Positions 4,429 through 47,301 of a stretch of DNA of 64,000 nucleotides are shown here, in pieces. The stretch comes from Promethearchaeota archaeon (GTDB lineage Archaea; Asgardarchaeota; Lokiarchaeia; Sigyniarchaeales; SOKP01), in the NCBI GenBank assembly GCA_048941285.1, contig JBHLNS010000012.1, forward strand, positions 1 through 64,000, in the 5' to 3' direction. The notes under the pieces were generated by a model that saw only the letters and a list, made by a program, of their open reading frames with translations, did no database searches and was not told the origin of the DNA. Each line of letters opens with the position of its first letter. Positions within the stretch are counted from its first letter, which is position 1. A program made the position numbers and the translations under genes.

Positions 4429-6330
4429 TTATTCCTCTCTAATCTGCATAATCTCAGCAAGAAAGAGATCTGCTATTGTGAGCCATTTTTGTTTAGTTTC
4501 AGGGTCAGAAGTACTTTTTTTCGTTAAAATTTTACCTTTTTCGAGATTTTTTACAGCTAAGTCGAAATTGTCAAGTTCTTTATAACAAATTCCTAGTTTA
4601 ATATATGTTTGATTAATATACCACTCATCAGCAGCTACATTAATTGCTTTTTGGAATTTCTTAACTGCTTCCTCATAGTCTTCGTAATACATTAAAATTT
4701 CCCCATAGGTGTCGTGATAAGTTCCATTATCAGGTACTTTTTTAGTTATATCTTCCATAATTGCTATTGATTCATCTCTCTTATCTAAATAATGCAGCCA
4801 ATAAGCCTTATAGTTAAAAAGATCTGTATTTTTAGGATATTTCTTAATTAAATCATTAATAATATCTAAACCCGCATCAACTTTTCGCATTCTTCTAAGT
4901 ACTGAAGCCTGCTTCATTTTAATATCCATTTCATCATCAGGAAAAATTTCTAGCATTTCATCTAATAAATTCAAGACTTCATTGAGCTTTTCATAATAAA
5001 TCAAAATCCCTATCTTAGAATTATATAATGTAAGATTATTTGGATCTTTCTTAATATCTCTATCAATCTCTCTTATTTTTTCTTGAAATTGTTCTCCTGT
5101 AGGTTTAGTACCTTTCGATTGAAATATTTCCATCATATCCTGCCATATTATTCCCTCCAATTTATCATATGTTTCTTTTAATTCAACCTTTGCTTCAATC
5201 TTATAGGCTAGATAATTAATATAATCTGGCAAAAATTCTCTTAACGGTCCTTTTAGTTTTTTCTTAAATAATGTTTTGCAGATATCTTCTAAGACATTAT
5301 CTATAGTAGCACGTATATCTAAGGATCTTGAAAATAATTTGTTTAAATAAGTAAATTTAGTTATGTGATCCTCTGTAATTGTTCTTAGCATTATCTCTAA
5401 TCTCTCGTTTTCCTGGAAATAATAATACTTATCTGGGGGTACAATTAACTTGAAAAATTTAATCGGATATATTTGATTCTCAACAATTTCATCAATGTAA
5501 TACTCAAGTTTTGAATCCTTTATTCCATAGGCGCTTGAAAAATCTTCTTTCGAGATATAATCAGGATATTGATCTGGATGGTTAATTGAAAGAAAAAGGA
5601 GAATCTTATCAAATTCCTCCTCTTCTGTTAACATCGATTTAACTCTAGTATAATCTAATCTTAGAACATTATGAAGGAATCTAAATTGAATATCTTCATC
5701 ATTGATGTTGTAGTTGTCAAAAAAATTAATTGTTTTTTTAGTAATTTCTTCAATCCGTTTACTTTCTTCATCGAGAATTGATTGTCTGTCTAAGTCGTAG
5801 TTTTGGAGCATCCTTGAGTATTCTAATTTACCTGATTGTGTAATACTATACCTCTTGTTTTCTTTTGCTACAAATCCTTTATCTATTAATAAATTCATAT
5901 TTTTTGATAAAGATGATTGGTTAATTGAAAGAGGTTCTTCAAGAAAATTAGACCATTTTAAATAGCTATTATTATAAACCATCCATAATATCCAATGGTC
6001 ATAGTTTCTTCTCCTTTTAATAACATCTGGTGGATAATTCAATTTCCTTTTTTTCTTAAGTGCCCCAGAAATCTCATTAAATCTATTTTGACCCTCTGGA
6101 GTTATCTTATAATGGCCTCGGGAATAATTATCGACATAACCTCGCCCTTTTAACATAGAGAGATATTTTGATAGAGTAGATAAGCGAAGTTCAAGTGGTT
6201 TATCAGTGAAATCTGACCATTGGCATTCTTCATTATTATTTAGCATCCAAAGTATAATATGTTCAAAATTTTTTTTTCCAAACGTGGGAGTTTTATATAT
6301 CTCTTCGGGAGGATAATTAATTACACTCAT
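4429..6330 (-). CDS. Tandem winged-helix (MarR/ArsR-like) plus C-terminal TPR protein, putative transcription regulator
   Basis: Two repeats of NYPP...IILWM.NN...W..F...PL.I..S.LSK....L...G(Y/F)V.....Y.IT..G. C-terminal TPRs (YHDTYGEILMYYEDYEEAVKKFQKAI). Confidence 0.8.
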   Translation of the reverse strand: MSVINYPPEEIYKTPTFGKKNFEHIILWMLNNNEECQWSDFTDKPLELRLSTLSKYLSMLKGRGYVDNYSRGHYKITPEGQNRFNEISGALKKKRKLNYPPDVIKRRRNYDHWILWMVYNNSYLKWSNFLEEPLSINQSSLSKNMNLLIDKGFVAKENKRYSITQSGKLEYSRMLQNYDLDRQSILDEESKRIEEITKKTINFFDNYNINDEDIQFRFLHNVLRLDYTRVKSMLTEEEEFDKILLFLSINHPDQYPDYISKEDFSSAYGIKDSKLEYYIDEIVENQIYPIKFFKLIVPPDKYYYFQENERLEIMLRTITEDHITKFTYLNKLFSRSLDIRATIDNVLEDICKTLFKKKLKGPLREFLPDYINYLAYKIEAKVELKETYDKLEGIIWQDMMEIFQSKGTKPTGEQFQEKIREIDRDIKKDPNNLTLYNSKIGILIYYEKLNEVLNLLDEMLEIFPDDEMDIKMKQASVLRRMRKVDAGLDIINDLIKKYPKNTDLFNYKAYWLHYLDKRDESIAIMEDITKKVPDNGTYHDTYGEILMYYEDYEEAVKKFQKAINVAADEWYINQTYIKLGICYKELDNFDLAVKNLEKGKILTKKSTSDPETKQKWLTIADLFLAEIMQIREE

Positions 6331-6691
6331 AAATTAGGAATTCTCCGATTAAATTCTTTAATTATTGATAGATAGGTTATTTGATTATTTAAATGGTTTC
6401 CTATAGCTTCGAACTTCACAAAAAGTTTCATAATTAAAACTATATATCGAAGTTTATCTATATTAAAATTAAGAAAAAACCAAAAAAAGGTTGATAATAA
6501 TGAAAAGAAAAGAAAAATCACAATTAATAATAAGAAATATTGGATATCATTCCATCCAAGCAATTTGTAAATAATTTTTTTTAATTTTTTATTCTTTTTC
6601 TCGTAATTTTTAGAACTGAACTATTAAAAATTGGAGTCCACTTTCTTTTACTAGCATTAAATATCAATGTCCCTACTTTAAGGAGTAATTA

Positions 6692-6820
6692 GTGAATAAA
6701 ACTGATAAATTCTTTTTATGGTGTTACCTTGTCATCGCAATAAGTTTTGGAATCTTTCTTTTAGCTGGTGGCTGGAAGATAGCATTAATTTTACTAGTCT
6801 TGCTTAATGGAGGAATATAA
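6692..6820 (+). CDS. Small 42-aa predicted membrane protein (not in the ORF track)
   Basis: AAGGAG Shine-Dalgarno followed by GTG. Translation MNKTDKFFLWCYLVIAISFGIFLLAGGWKIALILLVLLNGGI has two hydrophobic segments around a GG turn. Confidence 0.5.
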   Translation: MNKTDKFFLWCYLVIAISFGIFLLAGGWKIALILLVLLNGGI

Positions 6821-6912
6821 AAGCTTTAATGTCAATTTTATTGATATCTTTTTCTTTTTATTTTCTAATACTATTTTCATTAATTATTTAGGCTTAATTT
6901 GAAATTAGATAA

Positions 6913-7395
6913 TTACCAACAACTGGGATCAAAGAATTTTTTATATTTTTTTAACCATGAACAAAATGAATACTTAGAATAATCTTCAGTAATTTCTTCT
7001 CCTTGTTGAATATCTTTTATAGTAACAGCACAAAATCCATTTTCATCTTCAGATGCACCAGAATTAGCATTAAAAGAATGATTTACATATCTAGAGTTAT
7101 CCAAACAATAAACTAAAGCATCCAGGTCTCTTTCATAATAAGAATAAGTAAGAAGATTTTCCATAAAATTATTCATTATAGCTGTTTTATAAGAGGAATC
7201 CAGAATTGTAAATTGTTTTTTTGTTATAACTAACACATCTTGTGGTCGTGCATGCCACCAAATTGTTCCTTTCGCTATAAATTTCTTTGCAAATAAACCT
7301 AAACCATGAATATCACTTGCTTTAACTTCAGTATGTTCAACAATAGGATTGATAGGTTTTTTATTATATGGTATATCTATACCTTTCATTTTCAT
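6913..7395 (-). CDS. SET-domain protein (putative protein-lysine methyltransferase)
   Basis: SET motifs: S.IHGLGLFA...I.KG, RYVNHS..AN, and IKDIQQGEEITEDY. Confidence 0.9.
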   Translation of the reverse strand: MKMKGIDIPYNKKPINPIVEHTEVKASDIHGLGLFAKKFIAKGTIWWHARPQDVLVITKKQFTILDSSYKTAIMNNFMENLLTYSYYERDLDALVYCLDNSRYVNHSFNANSGASEDENGFCAVTIKDIQQGEEITEDYSKYSFCSWLKKYKKFFDPSCW

Positions 7396-7496
7396 ATTAA
7401 TAGTAAAGAACTTATTTTTACATTTTGATAATTAAGGACATTTTTTAATAATTATTTCTGCAAATGTGAAAATCACTAGTAAAATTCAAATAATAT

Positions 7497-9305
7497 TTGT
7501 TTACTTTCTCTTTTATGACGCAACAAATCATCAAATGGGATTTAAGCGATTTTTATGTAAGTATAAACGATCCGCAAATTGAAAAGGATATTAAAGAATT
7601 AGAAAATTTAGCTGAAAATTTTTATCAAAAAGTCAAAGGAAGGTTAAAGGATCCCTCATTAACTTCAAAACTACTTCTAGAATTGTATAAAGAGTATGAA
7701 GCAATTTTAGAGAAATTATTTTACTTTGAAACTTATTCTACATTACTTTATAGAATTAATAGTCTAAATGATGATGTTAAATCTTTTTTCGCTAAAATAG
7801 ACGAATTTAAGGTTAAAATTCAACAAAAGCTTTTGTTTTTTGATTTAGAACTAAATGAAATTTCTGACACCAAATTTGAAGAATTCATTAATTCGCCAGA
7901 TTTGATAAATTATTCTCATGCTCTTAAATTCAATAGATTGAAAAAGCCACATCAACTCTCTGAAAAAGAAGAACAGATAATTTTAATGAAGGATATCACC
8001 GGAGTTAATGGATTCCAAAAGTTATATAGTGAATTAAAAAGTAGTTTCTTATTTGATTTTGAAATTGATGGAGAAGTAAAGCAGCTTACTGAAGCAGAAC
8101 TTTTTTCTTTTATGTATCAAGGAGACAAGGATCGTCGATATAAAGCCTTACAAACAATGATGAGTAAATACAAAGAACACGAAATGGTTTTTACACATAT
8201 TTATAATAATATCTTAAAAAACTGGGATTTAGAGTCCAAAAAGAAAAATTTTAAAAAGCCAATTTCCAGAAGAAACTTAGAAAACGAAGTTAGCGATGAA
8301 ATTGTTGAAATTCTTGGAGAGGTCACAACTGAAAGTTATCATATTGTTGAAAAATATTATAACATAAAAAGGAAACTCCTAAACCTTACTGAATTACATA
8401 TTTCTGATATATATTGTCCAGTTGGACAAGTTGTAAGGAGATACTCCTATCAAGAAGCTTTGGAATTGATAAAGGATTCAGTTACAAACTTTTATCCTGA
8501 ATTTAGAAATATTGTAGAAAAAATGGTCGAATTAAACCATATAGATGCTACACCAAGACAAGGAAAAAATAGAGGTGCTTTTTGTGCTCATGGAAAACAA
8601 AAACAATATGGATTTGTTTTTGTAAATTTTGAGAATACCGTGAGTTCAGTAAGTGCTTTAGCTCATGAACTTGGTCATGCTTTCCATGCTTACTATATAC
8701 AGCAAAATCAAAATTTTATGAATATAGATACTTCACTCGTCGTTGCAGAAATAGCTTCTGTATTTAATGAAATTTTAACTTTTGATTATTTAATGGAGAC
8801 AAATCTATCTAAAGAAGAAAAAATTTTGTTGCTTTGCACTTTTATTGAAAGAAATTTTAGCACTTCTCATAGACAAAATGCTTTCTATAGATTTGAAAAG
8901 GTTCTTCATGATTTATTAGAACAAAAGCTTCCTACCACTGAAGAATATCAAAACGCATTTGTGAAGGAAATTGAAATGATGTTTAGAAATTCTATAGTAA
9001 ATATTAAAGAAGAATATGCTACCTATTGTTTTGTTGTTTCACATTTTCTTCAAGTTCCTTTCTATGTCTATGCATATAATATGGCTAATCTTTTAGTAAT
9101 TTCAATTTATCAATTATATCTTGAGCAAAAGGAAGAATTTGTACCAAAATATCTAAAATTGCTGTGTATTGGGAGTTCACTTTCTCCAGAGGAAATGCTG
9201 TCTGAAATTGGCATAAATTTAAATGATCCATCATTTTGGGCAAAAGGAATTAAGTTTCTTTCGGATAAAATTGATGAGTTAGAATCTTTAGTTCAAAAAA
9301 ATTAA
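7497..9305 (+). CDS. pepF: Oligoendopeptidase F (M3B family)
   Basis: N-terminal WDLSDFY, PRQGKNRGAF, HELGH zinc motif, AEIAS..NE, and HF...FYVYAY. The true start may be the ATG of MTQQ. Confidence 0.9.
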   Translation: MFTFSFMTQQIIKWDLSDFYVSINDPQIEKDIKELENLAENFYQKVKGRLKDPSLTSKLLLELYKEYEAILEKLFYFETYSTLLYRINSLNDDVKSFFAKIDEFKVKIQQKLLFFDLELNEISDTKFEEFINSPDLINYSHALKFNRLKKPHQLSEKEEQIILMKDITGVNGFQKLYSELKSSFLFDFEIDGEVKQLTEAELFSFMYQGDKDRRYKALQTMMSKYKEHEMVFTHIYNNILKNWDLESKKKNFKKPISRRNLENEVSDEIVEILGEVTTESYHIVEKYYNIKRKLLNLTELHISDIYCPVGQVVRRYSYQEALELIKDSVTNFYPEFRNIVEKMVELNHIDATPRQGKNRGAFCAHGKQKQYGFVFVNFENTVSSVSALAHELGHAFHAYYIQQNQNFMNIDTSLVVAEIASVFNEILTFDYLMETNLSKEEKILLLCTFIERNFSTSHRQNAFYRFEKVLHDLLEQKLPTTEEYQNAFVKEIEMMFRNSIVNIKEEYATYCFVVSHFLQVPFYVYAYNMANLLVISIYQLYLEQKEEFVPKYLKLLCIGSSLSPEEMLSEIGINLNDPSFWAKGIKFLSDKIDELESLVQKN

Positions 9306-41080: not shown

Positions 41081-41497
41081 CTATTCTCCTTGAATTTGGA
41101 CATAAACTCTTCTATTTCGTGGCCCATCATACTCTGCAAACATTATTCCTTGCCATGTCCCTAGCATTAATCTACTATTATTGATTAATATTTCAACGGA
41201 GTGACCTGTTAACGAACATTTAATATGCGCATCAGAATTTCCTTCACCATGTTTATAGGAATACCCTAATCCACCACTCTTAGGAATGAGTTTACTTAAA
41301 TAATTACTAATATCTTTAATAACAGAAGGATCTGCATTTTCATTGATAGTTACCGCTGCAGTAGTATGCGGAACAAATACTCGACATACTCCTTGTTCTA
41401 CACCATATTTTCTAATAATATCATTAACTTGATTAGTAACATCTATTAATACTTCTCGTTCTGGAGTTTTAACTCTAAACTCATCAAATTTAATCAT
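41081..41497 (-). CDS. yjbQ: YjbQ/UPF0047 family protein
   Basis: PHTTAAVTINEN.DP, H.EGNSDAHIK and LGTWQGI.FAEYDGPR motifs. Confidence 0.93.
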   Translation of the reverse strand: MIKFDEFRVKTPEREVLIDVTNQVNDIIRKYGVEQGVCRVFVPHTTAAVTINENADPSVIKDISNYLSKLIPKSGGLGYSYKHGEGNSDAHIKCSLTGHSVEILINNSRLMLGTWQGIMFAEYDGPRNRRVYVQIQGE

Positions 41498-41541: not shown

Positions 41542-42309
41542 TTAATCATTAAAAGATCCATGCTTCCCTTTTCCCTTTGAAAATTCCGCGCTACCCTCTA
41601 AGAATTCCCCACTTTCTAAAGTTCTCAAACCATATTCAAATTCTTTTGCCATAGCATCTTTCACATTTAAGCCAAATTGATTATAAACAGATAATCGATC
41701 ATTCCTCATGCAAATTTTTGGAAATTTAGCTAGTTCTCTTGCCAAATTTTCTGCTTGTTGTTTTGATTGACCATCTTCAACAATTCGATTAGCGAGACCC
41801 CAAGAATATGCTTCATCAGTAGCTACAGGGCGTCCTGTTAGGATCATGTCTAATGCTCTACTTAAACCGATAAGTCGGGGTAAGCGAACTGTTCCACCAT
41901 CAATTAAAGGTACGCCAAACCTACGGCAGAACACTCCAAATATAGCACTTCTCTCTACCACTCGTAAATCACACCATAATGCTAATTCGAGACCTCCTGC
42001 AACAGCATATCCCGCAACTGCTGCAATTACTGGTTTTGTTAATCTCATCCTTGTAGGGCCCATAGGCCCATCGCCTTTTTTCTCTATTCGATTTCCAATA
42101 CCCTCTGTTATGGCTTCTAAATTAGCGCCAGAACAAAAAGTACCATTAGCACCCCATAAAACAGCAACTTCTGCTTTATCATCATTTTCAAATTTGCGAA
42201 AAGCATCAGCAAGTTCTTTAGCAGTAGGGCCATCTACAGCATTTTTAACCTTTGGATTATCTAAAATAATCGTATAAATTGGATAGTTTATTTCTATAAA
42301 AACTGCCAT
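41542..42309 (-). CDS. Enoyl-CoA hydratase/isomerase (crotonase) family protein
   Basis: FCSGANL, KPVIAAVAGYAVAGGLELALWCD and GVPLIDGG motifs. The start is probably ATG 42309 (MAVF) rather than 42411. Confidence 0.92.
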   Translation of the reverse strand: MAVFIEINYPIYTIILDNPKVKNAVDGPTAKELADAFRKFENDDKAEVAVLWGANGTFCSGANLEAITEGIGNRIEKKGDGPMGPTRMRLTKPVIAAVAGYAVAGGLELALWCDLRVVERSAIFGVFCRRFGVPLIDGGTVRLPRLIGLSRALDMILTGRPVATDEAYSWGLANRIVEDGQSKQQAENLARELAKFPKICMRNDRLSVYNQFGLNVKDAMAKEFEYGLRTLESGEFLEGSAEFSKGKGKHGSFND

Positions 42310-42668
42310 GGAAAAACATAAATTTTTAGAAATAAAAAATTTAATGAATTTAAAATTGAAATTTGATATATTAATTTGGTTTACTTTTTTAACTAAAACG
42401 GAATCTATCAAATATTATTCCTATTTTAATATTGAATGAAGATTCATTCAAAAATCAACTTTATTTAAAAAATTTCTTTAATCCTTGAAGATTCCTTATG
42501 AAACTCAAATTAAGTATACGTTTTATGATAATGTTGGCGATTTGGTTAAACTTATATATGATGCAAATTATTCAACTAGATATCTATTAAGTCAAACGGA
42601 TATTACACTGAATAGATGTTCATTTAATAAAATTTAAAGAAAAATTTAATAAAAAAAGGTCGAAAAAA

Positions 42669-43694
42669 ATGGTTATAAAAACACAAATAACTGAAATGTT
42701 AGGGATTAAGCATCCAATAGTTGCTGCACCAATGGGACCCTTTTATACAACAAATCTAACAATCGCGGTCTCAGAAGCAGGAGGCTTAGGCGTTTTAAGC
42801 CATGTAACATTAAGTGAAGGCATCACCGTTAATCAAATTAAAGAAAGTATGAAGAAGGTAGTTGAACATACTGATAAACCTTTTGGATTAAATATTAGAA
42901 CCGCAGCATTACAACCTGATGCCATAAAACTATGTAGACAAATTCCAAAGTTTATAATGGATAATCCAAAAATCAAAGAACAATGTACTTATCTAATTAC
43001 AAGTGCAGGGTCTCCAAAGATACTTTACAACAAATATTATAAGGAACTAAAGAAATCATCAAATATCAAAAATTTTCACGTAGTACCTTCTTTAGAGTTA
43101 GCTAAAAAAGTGATAAAAGATGGTGTAGATGGGATAGTCGCAACCGGACACGAAGGTGGAGGGCATCAAGCTTATGAAAGTGCAAGTACTTTAGTACTTT
43201 TACAGCAAATTAGACAAGAAATTCCAGAAATTCCTATTATCGCTTGTGGAGGCTATGGAACTGGAGAAGGATTAGCATCAGCTTTGGCTATGGGAGCTGG
43301 GGCAATTGCAATGGGAACAAGACTTATTGCATCAAAGGAATGTGAATTTCATGAAAATTATAAGAATGAAGTTAAAAATTCTACTATATCCGATACTAAA
43401 ATGGTTACTGGAGTTTTTGGACCAGCAAGAGTTTTAAAGAATAACTATGCAAAAACTGCCACTGTTGTATTAAATAAAGCAGAAAAAAGAGCTGAAGAAA
43501 CTTCTATTGAAGTAATTAGAGAGGGGGTATTAAAATTAGAGAAAGCATATAAAGGAGACGTTGATAATGGTATTATACTCTTAGGACAAAGTTGTGGGCT
43601 GGTAGACGAAATAGAGAGTGTCTCAGACATAATTAATTCAATTGTAGATAGTGCTGAGAAATGCCTTAAGAGTGCATATTACATGGTAAACTAA
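42669..43694 (+). CDS. Nitronate monooxygenase / FabK-like FMN oxidoreductase
   Basis: LGIKHPIV.APM, AVSEAGGLG, GHEGGGH, PIIACGG and MGTR motifs. Confidence 0.9.
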   Translation: MVIKTQITEMLGIKHPIVAAPMGPFYTTNLTIAVSEAGGLGVLSHVTLSEGITVNQIKESMKKVVEHTDKPFGLNIRTAALQPDAIKLCRQIPKFIMDNPKIKEQCTYLITSAGSPKILYNKYYKELKKSSNIKNFHVVPSLELAKKVIKDGVDGIVATGHEGGGHQAYESASTLVLLQQIRQEIPEIPIIACGGYGTGEGLASALAMGAGAIAMGTRLIASKECEFHENYKNEVKNSTISDTKMVTGVFGPARVLKNNYAKTATVVLNKAEKRAEETSIEVIREGVLKLEKAYKGDVDNGIILLGQSCGLVDEIESVSDIINSIVDSAEKCLKSAYYMVN

Positions 43695-43978: not shown

Positions 43979-45067
43979 TTATTTTTGATTTTTCAAATAT
44001 TCATTCATTTCAACAAAACTGCTAGTTCTAATTAGTGCTGCTTTGAGAAATTGGAACCCTATATCATATGTAGAACCATCTCCTCCGATATGGATAATCC
44101 AGGGTATCTCTTGGTTATAAAGATTTTTTGCTTTCATGATCTTTTTTGCGGTTGAGATTGCTTCAGCAACTGTAGCACCAGATTCAAATAAATGGTGAAC
44201 CCAAGGAACATTCCAAGAAGTTACGTTATCTTTTGAAGTTGAAACTTCTGAACAACTCGTATTATTAACATAAATTATATTCTTATCTGCAACAGCGGTT
44301 GCAGCAGTTGCCATTTGATTTAAAACCATCCCCGCACCACAACCAGGACACAATCCATGACCTGGTTGTAAATGGGTTTGAGGTTGCAGTTTCTTTCGGT
44401 TTACTCTATAAACATCCATAGATTTTTCAGCACCAAATTTATCGATTAATGCTTTTATTTTATTATTGCGTTGCTCTGTTAAGTAAATGATCTCATCAAT
44501 TTCTTTTTCCATGAACTTGGGTTTAAATAGATGCCTAAATTTTCCCATTGATTTAAGATAATCAACAAATTTATCCCTATCAATATCTAATCCGCGATAA
44601 TAAGTAAAAGTGGGGATACCATCGTTAACCCTTACCGTGTAAAGAGGCCAATATCCACAATCAGTTGCTAGTTTTGAGATGTTGAGAGCGTCAGAAGCAT
44701 CATGCCTCCATCCTCTCATACAATCAGAATAAGCTTGAATAAACGCAGAACCATTTGATTTAAGTGCATCAGCTACTTTTCCCATAAAATCATTTGGATA
44801 TGCTGGATTTACTGTAGCTAAGAAAAGTTTTTTAGTTCCATAGAAAGCAAATGGAGTTACTAAATCCTGCTTTATACCTATTTTACCTGGAATTTTATCT
44901 CCTGCTGGACCTGTTGTTGTAGAGGCATAAGGAGGTGTTCCTCCGCTTTCTTGGATCCCTGTATTCATAAACGCTTCATTATCATAATTGAAAAATAATA
45001 CATTACATTTTTCATTTCGGGCTAAGATATCATCAAAATTAATAATATTTCTCTCGGATTTTCCCAT
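43979..45067 (-). CDS. porB: 2-oxoacid:ferredoxin oxidoreductase beta subunit, circularly permuted
   Basis: YDNEAFMNTGIQES near the N-terminus. GHGLCPGCG, NNTSC and GGDGSTYDIGFQ lie in the C-terminal third. Confidence 0.88.
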   Translation of the reverse strand: MGKSERNIINFDDILARNEKCNVLFFNYDNEAFMNTGIQESGGTPPYASTTTGPAGDKIPGKIGIKQDLVTPFAFYGTKKLFLATVNPAYPNDFMGKVADALKSNGSAFIQAYSDCMRGWRHDASDALNISKLATDCGYWPLYTVRVNDGIPTFTYYRGLDIDRDKFVDYLKSMGKFRHLFKPKFMEKEIDEIIYLTEQRNNKIKALIDKFGAEKSMDVYRVNRKKLQPQTHLQPGHGLCPGCGAGMVLNQMATAATAVADKNIIYVNNTSCSEVSTSKDNVTSWNVPWVHHLFESGATVAEAISTAKKIMKAKNLYNQEIPWIIHIGGDGSTYDIGFQFLKAALIRTSSFVEMNEYLKNQK

Positions 45068-46297
45068 TTATTGATTCACCCCTGAAATTCTTTGTTTTGA
45101 TTCTCGAACCCCTAAATATTGATATAACTCTCCTTTCATATCTGATACAGACTCCATTTTCTTTTTTGCTATGTCAAATTCATCTCGAGTAACATCTCTT
45201 CCACCTAAACCAACAATAAAGCTCCTAAAAAGTGTTCCCAAAGGATATAACGCAGAAGCAACTGACATTGAAAACGGCGGTAACAATCCATTTAGAGAAT
45301 CGCTTTTTTCTAGAAGAATTAATTTTTCTAAACCAAATTCTTCTACAATATTCCGTAATTCTTCATGTGGAAAAGGTCGGTATGCTCTGATTTTAATTAA
45401 ACCTATATCCTTGTTTTTTGTCATCCAACTAATAATATTACCACTTACACTACCCATAGTACAAAAAGCAGTTTTAGATGAATTATCTAAATTATAAGTT
45501 TCAATTAGGTTATATTCTCTTCCTGTCTCTGTTTTGAATTTATTAAATACATCCTCCATTTGGCCTAAAACAGGTTTTTTGGCATCTTCTAATCTTGCTC
45601 GTCCTTCCATAAAGTAGGATGGGGTGACAATACCTCCCCATGTTCCTGGCTTTGATGGGTCAATAGTGTGCCTTGACTTCTTGGGAGTCATTCTTTTAAC
45701 AGTTTCATCCGGTATTAATGTTAATTTCTGAACGGAATGAGAAATTATAAATCCATCATGCACAAATATAGTTGGAAATAAAGATTCCTCTGAAATCATG
45801 ACTGAAAGTATTGCTGCATCATAAGTCTCTTGCACATTTTCAGAAACAATTATATTCCACCCAAGCTCAGAATTAACTTGCGTAAATTCCCAAGAATTCC
45901 AAATAGATAAGTTTGGGGAATTGAAAGCTCTAGCAGAAATCATCATTGTTAAAGGCAATCTCCATCCTACTGCCATGGGAAGTGCTTCGGTCATTAATAA
46001 ATAACCTTGACTTGCGGTAGCAGTAAAAGATCTTGCACCCGCTGCACATGCAGCTGTTGAAAAACTTATAGCAGCTAATTCTGATTCGACATTCACAAAT
46101 GCAGCTTTTAATCTTCCATGATGAACCACATCAGATAAACCTTCAACAGACTGAGTTTGTGGGGTAATAGGAAAAGCGCAAATAACATCAGGGTCTGTCT
46201 GAGTCACACCACCAGCAACAGCATAATTTCCTATCATTGTTGTTTCTATTGGTTCCTTAATTTCTTTAAAAAATATTCTCATTGGCTCTATACTCAT
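45068..46297 (-). CDS. porA: 2-oxoacid:ferredoxin oxidoreductase alpha subunit
   Basis: GNYAVA, FPITPQT, VESE, TATASQG, DGFIISH and GLGGRD motifs. An AAGGAGG Shine-Dalgarno supports a start at ATG 46297. Confidence 0.92.
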   Translation of the reverse strand: MSIEPMRIFFKEIKEPIETTMIGNYAVAGGVTQTDPDVICAFPITPQTQSVEGLSDVVHHGRLKAAFVNVESELAAISFSTAACAAGARSFTATASQGYLLMTEALPMAVGWRLPLTMMISARAFNSPNLSIWNSWEFTQVNSELGWNIIVSENVQETYDAAILSVMISEESLFPTIFVHDGFIISHSVQKLTLIPDETVKRMTPKKSRHTIDPSKPGTWGGIVTPSYFMEGRARLEDAKKPVLGQMEDVFNKFKTETGREYNLIETYNLDNSSKTAFCTMGSVSGNIISWMTKNKDIGLIKIRAYRPFPHEELRNIVEEFGLEKLILLEKSDSLNGLLPPFSMSVASALYPLGTLFRSFIVGLGGRDVTRDEFDIAKKKMESVSDMKGELYQYLGVRESKQRISGVNQ

Positions 46298-46311
46298 AAT
46301 ATATTCCTCCT

Positions 46312-47301
46312 TTATTCGGGTACGGCGCATGAGGCCGGACCTTGTTTTAATTCTTTAGTTATTGCTTGAACAGGACAAATTTCTAGGCAATTTTGACAAG
46401 ATTTGCAGTGAGATTGATCAATACCTTTCATATGCCATAGACCATCCTCTCCTCTTTCTCTTATAATTGTAAAATCAGGACAAATGTACCAGCACTGCGC
46501 ACAGTCAGTACATTTTTCCTCATCCCAAATCATATTCCACTCACCCCAAGAACCAGTATTTACTTGCTTACTCCCCATCTCTATAACATCTTCATCACAA
46601 TACCACACACCCGCATCATCTATTTCTTTATATCCTGGTAATCCAGGATAAACCTGTTGCCAAGGAACTTTTGTATCAATGCTAAAATCAATATCAGGAG
46701 CTTCTGATGTTTCATAAATACAAGTCTCTTCATAAGCTTGTTTTATAGCAGCAACATTTTTCCCAGCAATTTCACCTTTGAATCGACGCATTATTGCATC
46801 TGCTAACGCATCAATAGAAAATATAGGCACCACCCTTAATAAAGCTCCTAAAATGATTGTATTTGTAATGTTTCTGCCTAGAATCTCCATTGCAATATTT
46901 AATGCATCGATTGTTGCGATATTTACATCTTTTCGACCAATAATTTGTTGAATTGATACTTGATCCATTGTAGTATTAACAATAAGCCACCCTCCAGGAG
47001 CTAGTCCTGCTATAACATCAACTTCTCCTAAAAGTGAGGGATCTAATACAGAAACTGCATGTGGTGCATAAACTTGTTCATTTGTTCTTACCAAGTCTTC
47101 ATTTGCACTTAACCTAACATAACTTTCTGTTGGAGATCCCATACGTTCTGCACCAAATAAAGGTTGGCAGACTCCATACCCATAAAATGCTTCAACACAT
47201 AAATTAGAAGCAGTAACTCCACCTTGACCACCACGAGCATGAAATCTAAGATTCACTACATTCTCTTTTAAAATTTCTTTCATTTTTTCTGGAGTTAGCA
47301 T
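46312..47301 (-). CDS. 2-oxoacid:ferredoxin oxidoreductase gamma-delta fusion
   Basis: Gamma part: RFHARGGQGGVTA, FGAERMGSP, NTIILGA. Delta part: two ferredoxin motifs, CTDCAQCWYICP and CKSCQNCLEICP. Confidence 0.92.
   Translation of the reverse strand: MLTPEKMKEILKENVVNLRFHARGGQGGVTASNLCVEAFYGYGVCQPLFGAERMGSPTESYVRLSANEDLVRTNEQVYAPHAVSVLDPSLLGEVDVIAGLAPGGWLIVNTTMDQVSIQQIIGRKDVNIATIDALNIAMEILGRNITNTIILGALLRVVPIFSIDALADAIMRRFKGEIAGKNVAAIKQAYEETCIYETSEAPDIDFSIDTKVPWQQVYPGLPGYKEIDDAGVWYCDEDVIEMGSKQVNTGSWGEWNMIWDEEKCTDCAQCWYICPDFTIIRERGEDGLWHMKGIDQSHCKSCQNCLEICPVQAITKELKQGPASCAVPE

Follow-up and report, generated by a model that had tools for sequence, protein, structure and literature searches.

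In a stretch of 64,000 nucleotides from a Promethearchaeota archaeon (NCBI GenBank assembly GCA_048941285.1, contig JBHLNS010000012.1, positions 1 to 64,000; hereafter the window), we analyzed an open reading frame (ORF) at 43979–45067 on the minus strand, which encodes 362 amino acids plus the stop codon and is here named porB'. Its product carries both halves of the beta subunit (PorB) of the 2-oxoacid:ferredoxin oxidoreductases (OFORs) in swapped order, as a circularly permuted chain. Searching the PDB chains with phmmer, residues 226–347 of porB' aligned with residues 3–115 of the PorB of M. acetivorans (9bt4_C; E 1.3e-17), and residues 23–193 with residues 119–282 of the same chain (E 5e-26), domain E-values that exclude chance for the two-piece match. 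An identical swapped pattern was obtained with the beta subunit of oxalate oxidoreductase (5c4i_C), and the NCBIfam PorB model NF008819 likewise matched in two stretches in swapped order. An initial annotation of this ORF had proposed that it opens with the second half of PorB and continues into the canonical N-terminus, an arrangement which all three of these comparisons reproduce. No colinear full-length match to an OFOR beta subunit above the curated cutoff was produced by either NF008819 (205.2 bits against a cutoff of 405) or NF008818 (165.5 bits against 405), and Pfam returned only a partial TPP_enzyme_C match of 24.9 bits.

The permuted chain can be followed along the minus strand from its first codon. 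A head of 22 residues (45002–45067), a family-specific N-terminal extension of the form NIIxxEDLLxR that is conserved in an alignment of 26 sequences, precedes the former C-terminal half (residues 23–193; 44489–45001), which now comes first and begins with the DN strand. Here lie the motif YDNEAFMNTG (residues 28–37), with D29-N30 (44978–44983) as the DN end of the motif for thiamine diphosphate (ThDP) and Mg, and SDCMRGW (canonical APCPTGW), with C116 (44720–44722) as the candidate fourth cysteine ligand of the proximal [4Fe-4S] cluster. A linker of 32 residues (194–225; 44393–44488), located between the two pieces aligned to the PDB chain, joins the old C-terminus to the old N-terminus. The former N-terminal half follows (residues 226–347; 44027–44392) and harbors GHGLCPGCG with C240-x2-C243 (44339–44350), NNTSC with C272 (44252–44254) and, in the strand and helix with which it ends, G329-D330-G331 (44075–44083), the GDG start of the ThDP/Mg motif. 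A family-specific tail of 15 residues (348–362; 43982–44026) closes the chain. Residues 328–339 read GGDGSTYDIGFQ; the initial annotation had let the protein end just after this region, and the ORF in fact extends 23 residues beyond "GFQ".

The alignments place the cut point within the canonical "ER|GHD" loop, which connects the helix after GDG to the DN strand. All parts of the ThDP/Mg signature, GDG-X(~25)-DN and NTG, are thus present, at opposite ends of the chain: GDG lies at 329–331, 32 residues from the C-terminus, and DN at 29–30, so that the canonical GDG-X25-DN signature is divided. The initial annotation had placed the break inside this motif, with all four candidate cluster cysteines kept, and both points held: C116, C240, C243 and C272 align with the canonical cysteines of 9bt4_C. 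In the same alignment (A1; 26 sequences, 54–88% identical), these four cysteines are invariant together with D29, N30, N35, T36, G37, G329, D330 and G331. Compared with 9bt4_C, the PorB of a four-subunit archaeal pyruvate:ferredoxin oxidoreductase (PFOR), porB' shares the fold units and the motifs CxxC, NxTxC, GDG...DN, NTG and the final Cys, at about 30–40% identity per half, and, as 9bt4_C does, would partner PorA and gamma and delta domains; the differences reside in the order swapped at the ER|GHD loop, the linker, the head, the tail and the low model score.

Relatives, distribution and selection

A word-indexed search retrieved 191 relatives of porB'. Among the 120 relatives listed, 106 align colinearly over no less than 93% of the query, with identities of 54–88%, and they derive from NCBI, JGI, ENA and Logan assemblies. 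When the full-length family members (the query and 105 others) were compared with a profile built from 49 stand-alone beta subunits of canonical order, the swapped domain order was found in 106 of 106, which disposes of the concern that close relatives might all be canonical. Within species-representative genomes porB' is encoded at 136 loci, of which 80 were fetched, nearly all of them labelled as Asgard lineages; one contig filed under "Candidatus Nanopelagicaceae bacterium" (DATKTW010000155.1) carries porGD-porA-porB' at 82% identity and looks like binning contamination.

We then surveyed the phylum in a sample of 400 genomes, taking the best matches at E<=1e-100 with a full or long colinear match. 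In the class to which the window belongs (Loki-type Asgard archaea), porB' was present in 128 of 160 genomes, with identities down to 51%, and in the other classes of the phylum in 1 of 239. The latter match (G075:C23), fragmentary and 87% identical, sits on a small contig of a genome from another Asgard class, and is probably contamination. The remaining matches outside the class span only query residues ~22–200, as canonical PorB does. An exhaustive search of 1.84 billion cluster representatives yielded 1293 matching proteins, and the best 150 of these comprised 2 permuted proteins, 5 fragments of the family and 124 canonical proteins, the rest being matches to one half.

The window comes from a draft genome of 101 contigs, and one in-frame stop (TGA, TAA or TAG) interrupts the porB' match in each of five class members (G163, G274, G159, G273 and G123), for which sequencing error, pseudogene formation or recoding are all possible. 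An assembly artefact or a decaying pseudogene could be argued from these two facts, but the same order recurs at 136 independently assembled loci of many assemblies and in 128 of 160 genomes, and in two DNA studies Logan contigs run across the linker (X1 at 44298–44522 with 0 differences, X2 at 44352–44557). Contigs of these two studies also bridge both ends of the gene, although the best-matching holder may be the source sample. Together with the selection on the gene, described next, this makes the artefact or pseudogene explanation vanishingly improbable, and we regard it, including the misassembly feared at the outset, as refuted.

Selection was estimated from pairwise ratios of nonsynonymous to synonymous substitution (dN/dS; Nei-Gojobori) in 88 intact coding sequences, in which 1929 of 3828 pairs were usable, the rest being saturated. 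The median dN/dS was 0.061 for the whole of porB', 0.050 for the former C-terminal half and 0.067 for the former N-terminal half, and among the new parts 0.135 for the linker, 0.19 for the head and 0.20 for the tail. Hence, porB' is under purifying selection, and even the new parts are constrained. The initial annotation had preferred a functional natural permutation over decay, and the conservation, the dN/dS of 0.06 and the invariant putative catalytic residues argue for that preference.

The same data bear on whether the ORF might yield two separate polypeptides, through initiation or processing within the linker, so that the beta subunit would be split, with its halves encoded in swapped order. 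Such a product would fit with the two halves being separable homology units and with a methionine in the linker (M218). Yet the frame is continuous in 88 of 88 full-length coding sequences, the linker is itself under purifying selection (0.135) and is predicted as a confident helix and strand, and no stand-alone genes for either half were found, the representatives that hold the C-terminal half only being fragments at contig edges. We therefore consider such a two-chain product very unlikely.

Operon partners, neighbouring genes and ancestry

The stop codon TAA of porA directly precedes the ATG of porB', just as the initial annotation had described. This gene for the alpha subunit, which contains the PYR domain (45068–46330, minus strand), matches Pfam POR_N and PFOR_II and reaches 293 bits with NCBIfam PorA_Arch (cutoff 550). 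As listed, it starts at 46330 and overlaps the next gene by 19 nucleotides; stops occur upstream of the equivalent of M12 in six porA relatives, within the first 4–11 aligned codons, and a class member (G270) has a porA ORF of 409 amino acids beginning MSIEPM, so that the start is probably M12 (46297), possibly M17. Upstream lies porGD (46312–47301, minus strand), encoding a fusion of 329 amino acids between a CoA-binding gamma subunit and a delta ferredoxin with two [4Fe-4S] clusters, as assigned by Pfam POR and Fer4. It scores 149 bits with PorC_KorC and 58.8 bits with PorD_KorD, and two CxxCxxCxxxCP motifs can be read in its sequence.

This gene arrangement is conserved across the class. 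porA is directly upstream of porB' in 66 of the 68 loci with enough upstream DNA, porGD adjoins porA in 59 of 62, and the order porGD-porA-porB' is retained in 8 of 10 distant class members. Departures were also seen. In the single-contig genome G279:C1, porB' lies at 1.503 Mb, ~540 kb from porGD-porA (2.046–2.048 Mb), and in G129 porGD is on a different contig, all three genes being kept in both. An ORF of 518 amino acids of unknown function separates porGD from porA in locus L060 (1388–3787), a comparably sized gap occurs at this place in locus L072, and in L083 (3580–4997) a cold-shock-like gene of 81 amino acids on the opposite strand is placed between porA and porB'. Among five near-complete class genomes with no porB' match, three also have no matching porA; in G207 porA is at a contig edge, and in G270 the 430 bases from porA to the contig end hold no porB'.

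Downstream of porB' and on the same strand, a gene of the crotonase/enoyl-CoA hydratase family (41542–42411 in the window, minus strand; NF006108, 400.6 bits, cutoff 273) recurs in 40 of 70 loci, and a gene of the YjbQ family, named "secondary thiamine-phosphate synthase" by NCBI (41081–41497, minus strand; TIGR00149, 159 bits), in 41 of 70. These neighbours hint at an acyl-CoA context and perhaps at thiamine supply, and fix no substrate. In the window a FabK/NMO-like gene in the opposite orientation (42669–43694) lies between them and porB'.

Regarding the active site contributed by PorA, the Thr of its ITP motif and the Arg of its ARA motif each have an identical counterpart in the alignments with 9bt4_B and 1b0p_A; according to the PFOR literature, these residues function in carboxylate binding. 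5c4i_A, from oxalate oxidoreductase, has IRP in place of ITP, and the Arg of that motif presumably binds the second carboxylate. The PorA family also exhibits an invariant N-S-W-E-F at residues ~133–137 (numbered in the 409-residue form), where 9bt4_B and 1b0p_A have (N/G)DHQD, a nearly universal motif of alpha subunits, a replacement that may signify a changed active-site environment.

The oxalate oxidoreductase of Moorella thermoacetica (5c4i, 5exd, 5exe) likewise comprises three genes with the gamma and delta functions in one chain, and its model NF045790 matches the gamma-delta fusion of the window with 80.5 bits. It differs in that its own beta subunit is canonical in order and its alpha subunit has IRP, whereas the PorA of the window, like 9bt4_B and 1b0p_A, has ITP. 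Membership in this family was rejected on the ITP motif and on scores (models NF045790–NF045792) of 177.7 against a cutoff of 590 for beta, 139.5 against 500 for alpha and 80.5 against 230 for delta. The genome also encodes two canonical Por/Vor-type alpha-beta pairs (360–409 bits), and the enzyme containing porB' would therefore be a third, divergent OFOR.

The ancestry of porB' was examined in a quick maximum-likelihood tree of 89 rows, in which the two pieces of the permuted proteins were put in profile order. The rows comprised 34 of the 105 permuted proteins (sub-sampled), 46 canonical representatives, the 2 paralogs of the same genome and 7 betas of other Asgard classes; the tree was midpoint-rooted and without bootstrap, a careful tree search being unfinished. 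All permuted rows form one clade (SH-aLRT, the Shimodaira–Hasegawa-like approximate likelihood ratio test, 100), set off by a stem of 1.45 changes per site, and this clade is nested in a group of 99% SH-aLRT with six of the seven canonical betas of other Asgard classes, the two canonical paralogs of the genome falling elsewhere. The rearrangement would thus have arisen once, at the base of the Loki-type Asgard class, from a PorB lineage that persists in other Asgard classes within canonical operons of the order gamma, delta, alpha, beta.

Five such porC-porD-porA-porB operons of other Asgard classes (L086–L090) represent the nearest canonical relatives in the tree, with beta halves 39–45% and alpha subunits 31–36% identical; a closely identical canonical ortholog was not found. 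As read from the coordinates of the high-scoring segment pairs, gamma and delta are in separate frames in 5 of 5, and beta is colinear and in canonical order. The class-specific enzyme therefore differs from them by two rearrangements. One of these loci, L088, holds in addition a second OFOR cluster (5248–8486) in which a continuous gamma-delta-like match, 29% identical over 319 residues, is followed by alpha, with a canonical beta gene divergently upstream. Fusion of gamma and delta is thus not confined to the permuted system.

The route of the permutation left no trace that we could detect, there being no vestigial duplication and, among the representatives, no genuine split genes. The head and tail exhibit no significant likeness to the canonical PorB mid-region or to each other (hhalign E 0.12–0.54). 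Vestigial duplicated ends, which a route of duplication followed by truncation could leave, had been suggested by eye from tail "FVEMNEYL" against "FFNYDNEAFM" and head "DDILAR" against "KAALIR", and with profile–profile E-values in the range just given we make no claim of them. The earlier statement that no segment is duplicated thus stands within the limits of detection, qualified by a small overlap: in 91 of 106 members, only 3–6 profile positions are shared by the matches of the two ends (range −1 to 9). Naturally split beta genes were likewise discarded as intermediates: five representatives with the C-terminal half only start near the breakpoint, four of the five clusters hold a full-length canonical member of 301–321 amino acids and the fifth is a singleton, which identifies them as fragments. 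A canonical PorB relative of 413 amino acids (P0213) carries ~215 unrelated residues directly before "DIGLQALSG...", resembling by eye a remnant of a homing endonuclease or intein at the GDG motif.

Predicted fold and proposed enzyme

AlphaFold2, run with the family alignment, predicted porB' as one compact domain with a predicted TM-score (pTM) of 0.84 and a mean predicted local distance difference test (pLDDT) of 75.3, confidence being low only in the loops 31–64, 237–244 and 271–282, which need cofactors or partners, and in the tail (348–362). The head is modelled as a strand (6–10) and a helix (11–15), with a pLDDT of about 95 over residues 11–20, and the linker as a helix (186–211) and a strand (212–221) with pLDDT 81–92. 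In the predicted complex of PorA with porB', the interface score ipSAE was 0.84, the best of three controls reaching 0.00; the mark applied to such models is attained by 58 of 80 solved complexes and 2 of 110 mismatched pairs, counts that hold only roughly because our own alignments were used. Between runs, at least 95% of contacts coincide, and the partner's pLDDT is at least 84. Since similar complexes have been solved (9bt4, 5c4i), the pass may reflect memorisation by the model or likeness. The confident contacts are between residues 262–347 of porB', including the helix after GDG (339–347), and residues 64–90 of alpha, a stretch containing the invariant E71-S72-E73 (ESE).

From the general topology of PP domains, the cut loop would be expected at the far end of the alpha/beta sandwich, away from the cofactor, which would leave the Mg-ThDP site intact. 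The initial annotation had staked its proposal in part on whether a structural model can rebuild the thiamine pyrophosphate site. In favor are the compact fold and the placement of the helix after GDG against the ESE of alpha; the Mg-ThDP geometry itself is read from topology only.

Taken together, these features suggest, with a probability of roughly 0.85, that the product of this ORF is a working, circularly permuted OFOR beta subunit of the Por/Vor type, for which we infer fold closure, cofactor binding, catalysis and substrate. In the proposed enzyme, the canonical chain would have been broken in the loop that leads from the helix behind GDG to the strand ending in DN, and the old C- and N-termini linked through the 32-residue helix-strand linker. 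The C-terminal GDG strand and helix and the N-terminal DN strand would be neighbours in one sheet of the folded protein, such that the Mg-ThDP site is built from both chain ends, and C240, C243, C272 and C116 would ligate the proximal [4Fe-4S] cluster. Together with PorA (PYR domain; invariant ESE Glu, ITP Thr and ARA Arg) and the gamma-delta fusion (CoA domain and two [4Fe-4S] clusters), the assembly may convert a pyruvate-like 2-oxoacid, the presumed substrate, to acyl-CoA and CO2 with electrons passing to ferredoxin.

Several observations weigh against this proposal. The curated family models all remain under their cutoffs (PorB 205 against 405 bits, PorA 293 against 550). Sequential structure aligners cover one half only, as on any permutant, and so neither test nor contradict the closure of the site: Foldseek gave TMq values of 0.31–0.38 for OFOR chains against the porB' model, and VIA-align gave Z 9.5–11.3 over 161–177 residues (9bt4 chain C, Z 9.6 over 168 residues). 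Closure of the Mg-ThDP site accordingly depends on fold topology. The stem to the permuted clade is very long and, combined with SWEF in place of DHQD, implies that the substrate or even the chemistry may have shifted. In 32 of 160 class genomes, some of them 99–100% complete, no strong porB' match was found, so that the gene is dispensable. Finally, contigs from RNA libraries of one study, 95–99% alike, cover parts of porB', porA and porGD, one of them spanning the porA/porB' junction (44993–45231), and these do not prove transcription of the operon.

The long stem of 1.45 changes per site, the sub-cutoff scores and the invariant SWEF of alpha also feed the most serious competing explanation, in which the permuted subunit is folded and assembled but neofunctionalised, serving a substrate class or reaction other than pyruvate and branched-chain 2-oxoacids, or acting mainly as a structural or regulatory beta subunit. 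That two canonical Por/Vor-type paralogs already exist in the genome (360–388 bits against cutoffs of 405), and that crotonase and YjbQ genes are conserved neighbours, would agree with such a change. Against it, all alignable residues for ThDP/Mg, for the Fe-S cluster and for binding of the 2-oxoacid carboxylate are invariant, and the gamma-delta fusion retains the GGQG motif of the CoA domain as well as both ferredoxin motifs. We judge neofunctionalisation to be unlikely, and a working, permuted beta subunit remains the explanation we prefer.

Annotation and meaning

NCBI names the proteins of this family "hypothetical protein", and JGI names some members "pyruvate/2-oxoacid:ferredoxin oxidoreductase beta subunit" without remark on the order. 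A full-text search of the literature, judged on titles and the beginnings of abstracts, found no description of a permuted OFOR or ThDP enzyme, and the supplementary gene tables of Asgard genome papers might list the gene. ThDP enzymes such as transketolase, pyruvate decarboxylase and the OFORs have their PYR and PP domains in different orders or on different chains, and their sites tolerate varied connectivity. Those differences are rearrangements of whole domains, whereas the cut in porB' falls inside the PP domain, in the ThDP/Mg signature itself. Judged from its sequence, porB' represents a genuine and apparently functional variant, new in its topology, within a known enzyme family.

The interest of porB' lies in ThDP and OFOR enzymology and in the annotation of Asgard genomes. 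A natural, ancient and class-wide permutation through the ThDP/Mg signature of a central anaerobic enzyme provides a ready-made test of chain connectivity in a ThDP/Fe-S site. The swapped order also defeats profile-based annotation and, given the "hypothetical" names and the sub-cutoff model scores, metabolic reconstructions of Loki-type Asgard archaea can score the oxidoreductase as being without a beta subunit. Models of eukaryote origins and of ferredoxin- and hydrogen-based syntrophy give these archaea a central place, and with 128 of 160 against 1 of 239 genomes porB' constitutes a clean shared derived character of the class. More speculatively, and in our estimation rather doubtful, the permutation and the gamma-delta fusion may jointly have turned the PorCDAB of ancestral Asgard archaea into an enzyme particular to the class, in which the new chain ends, with the conserved head and tail lying beside the ThDP site and the interface with alpha, would change cofactor loading, partner docking or substrate range; it would then be this remodelled enzyme, and not the two canonical paralogs, that forms a key 2-oxoacid/ferredoxin node of Loki-type Asgard metabolism.

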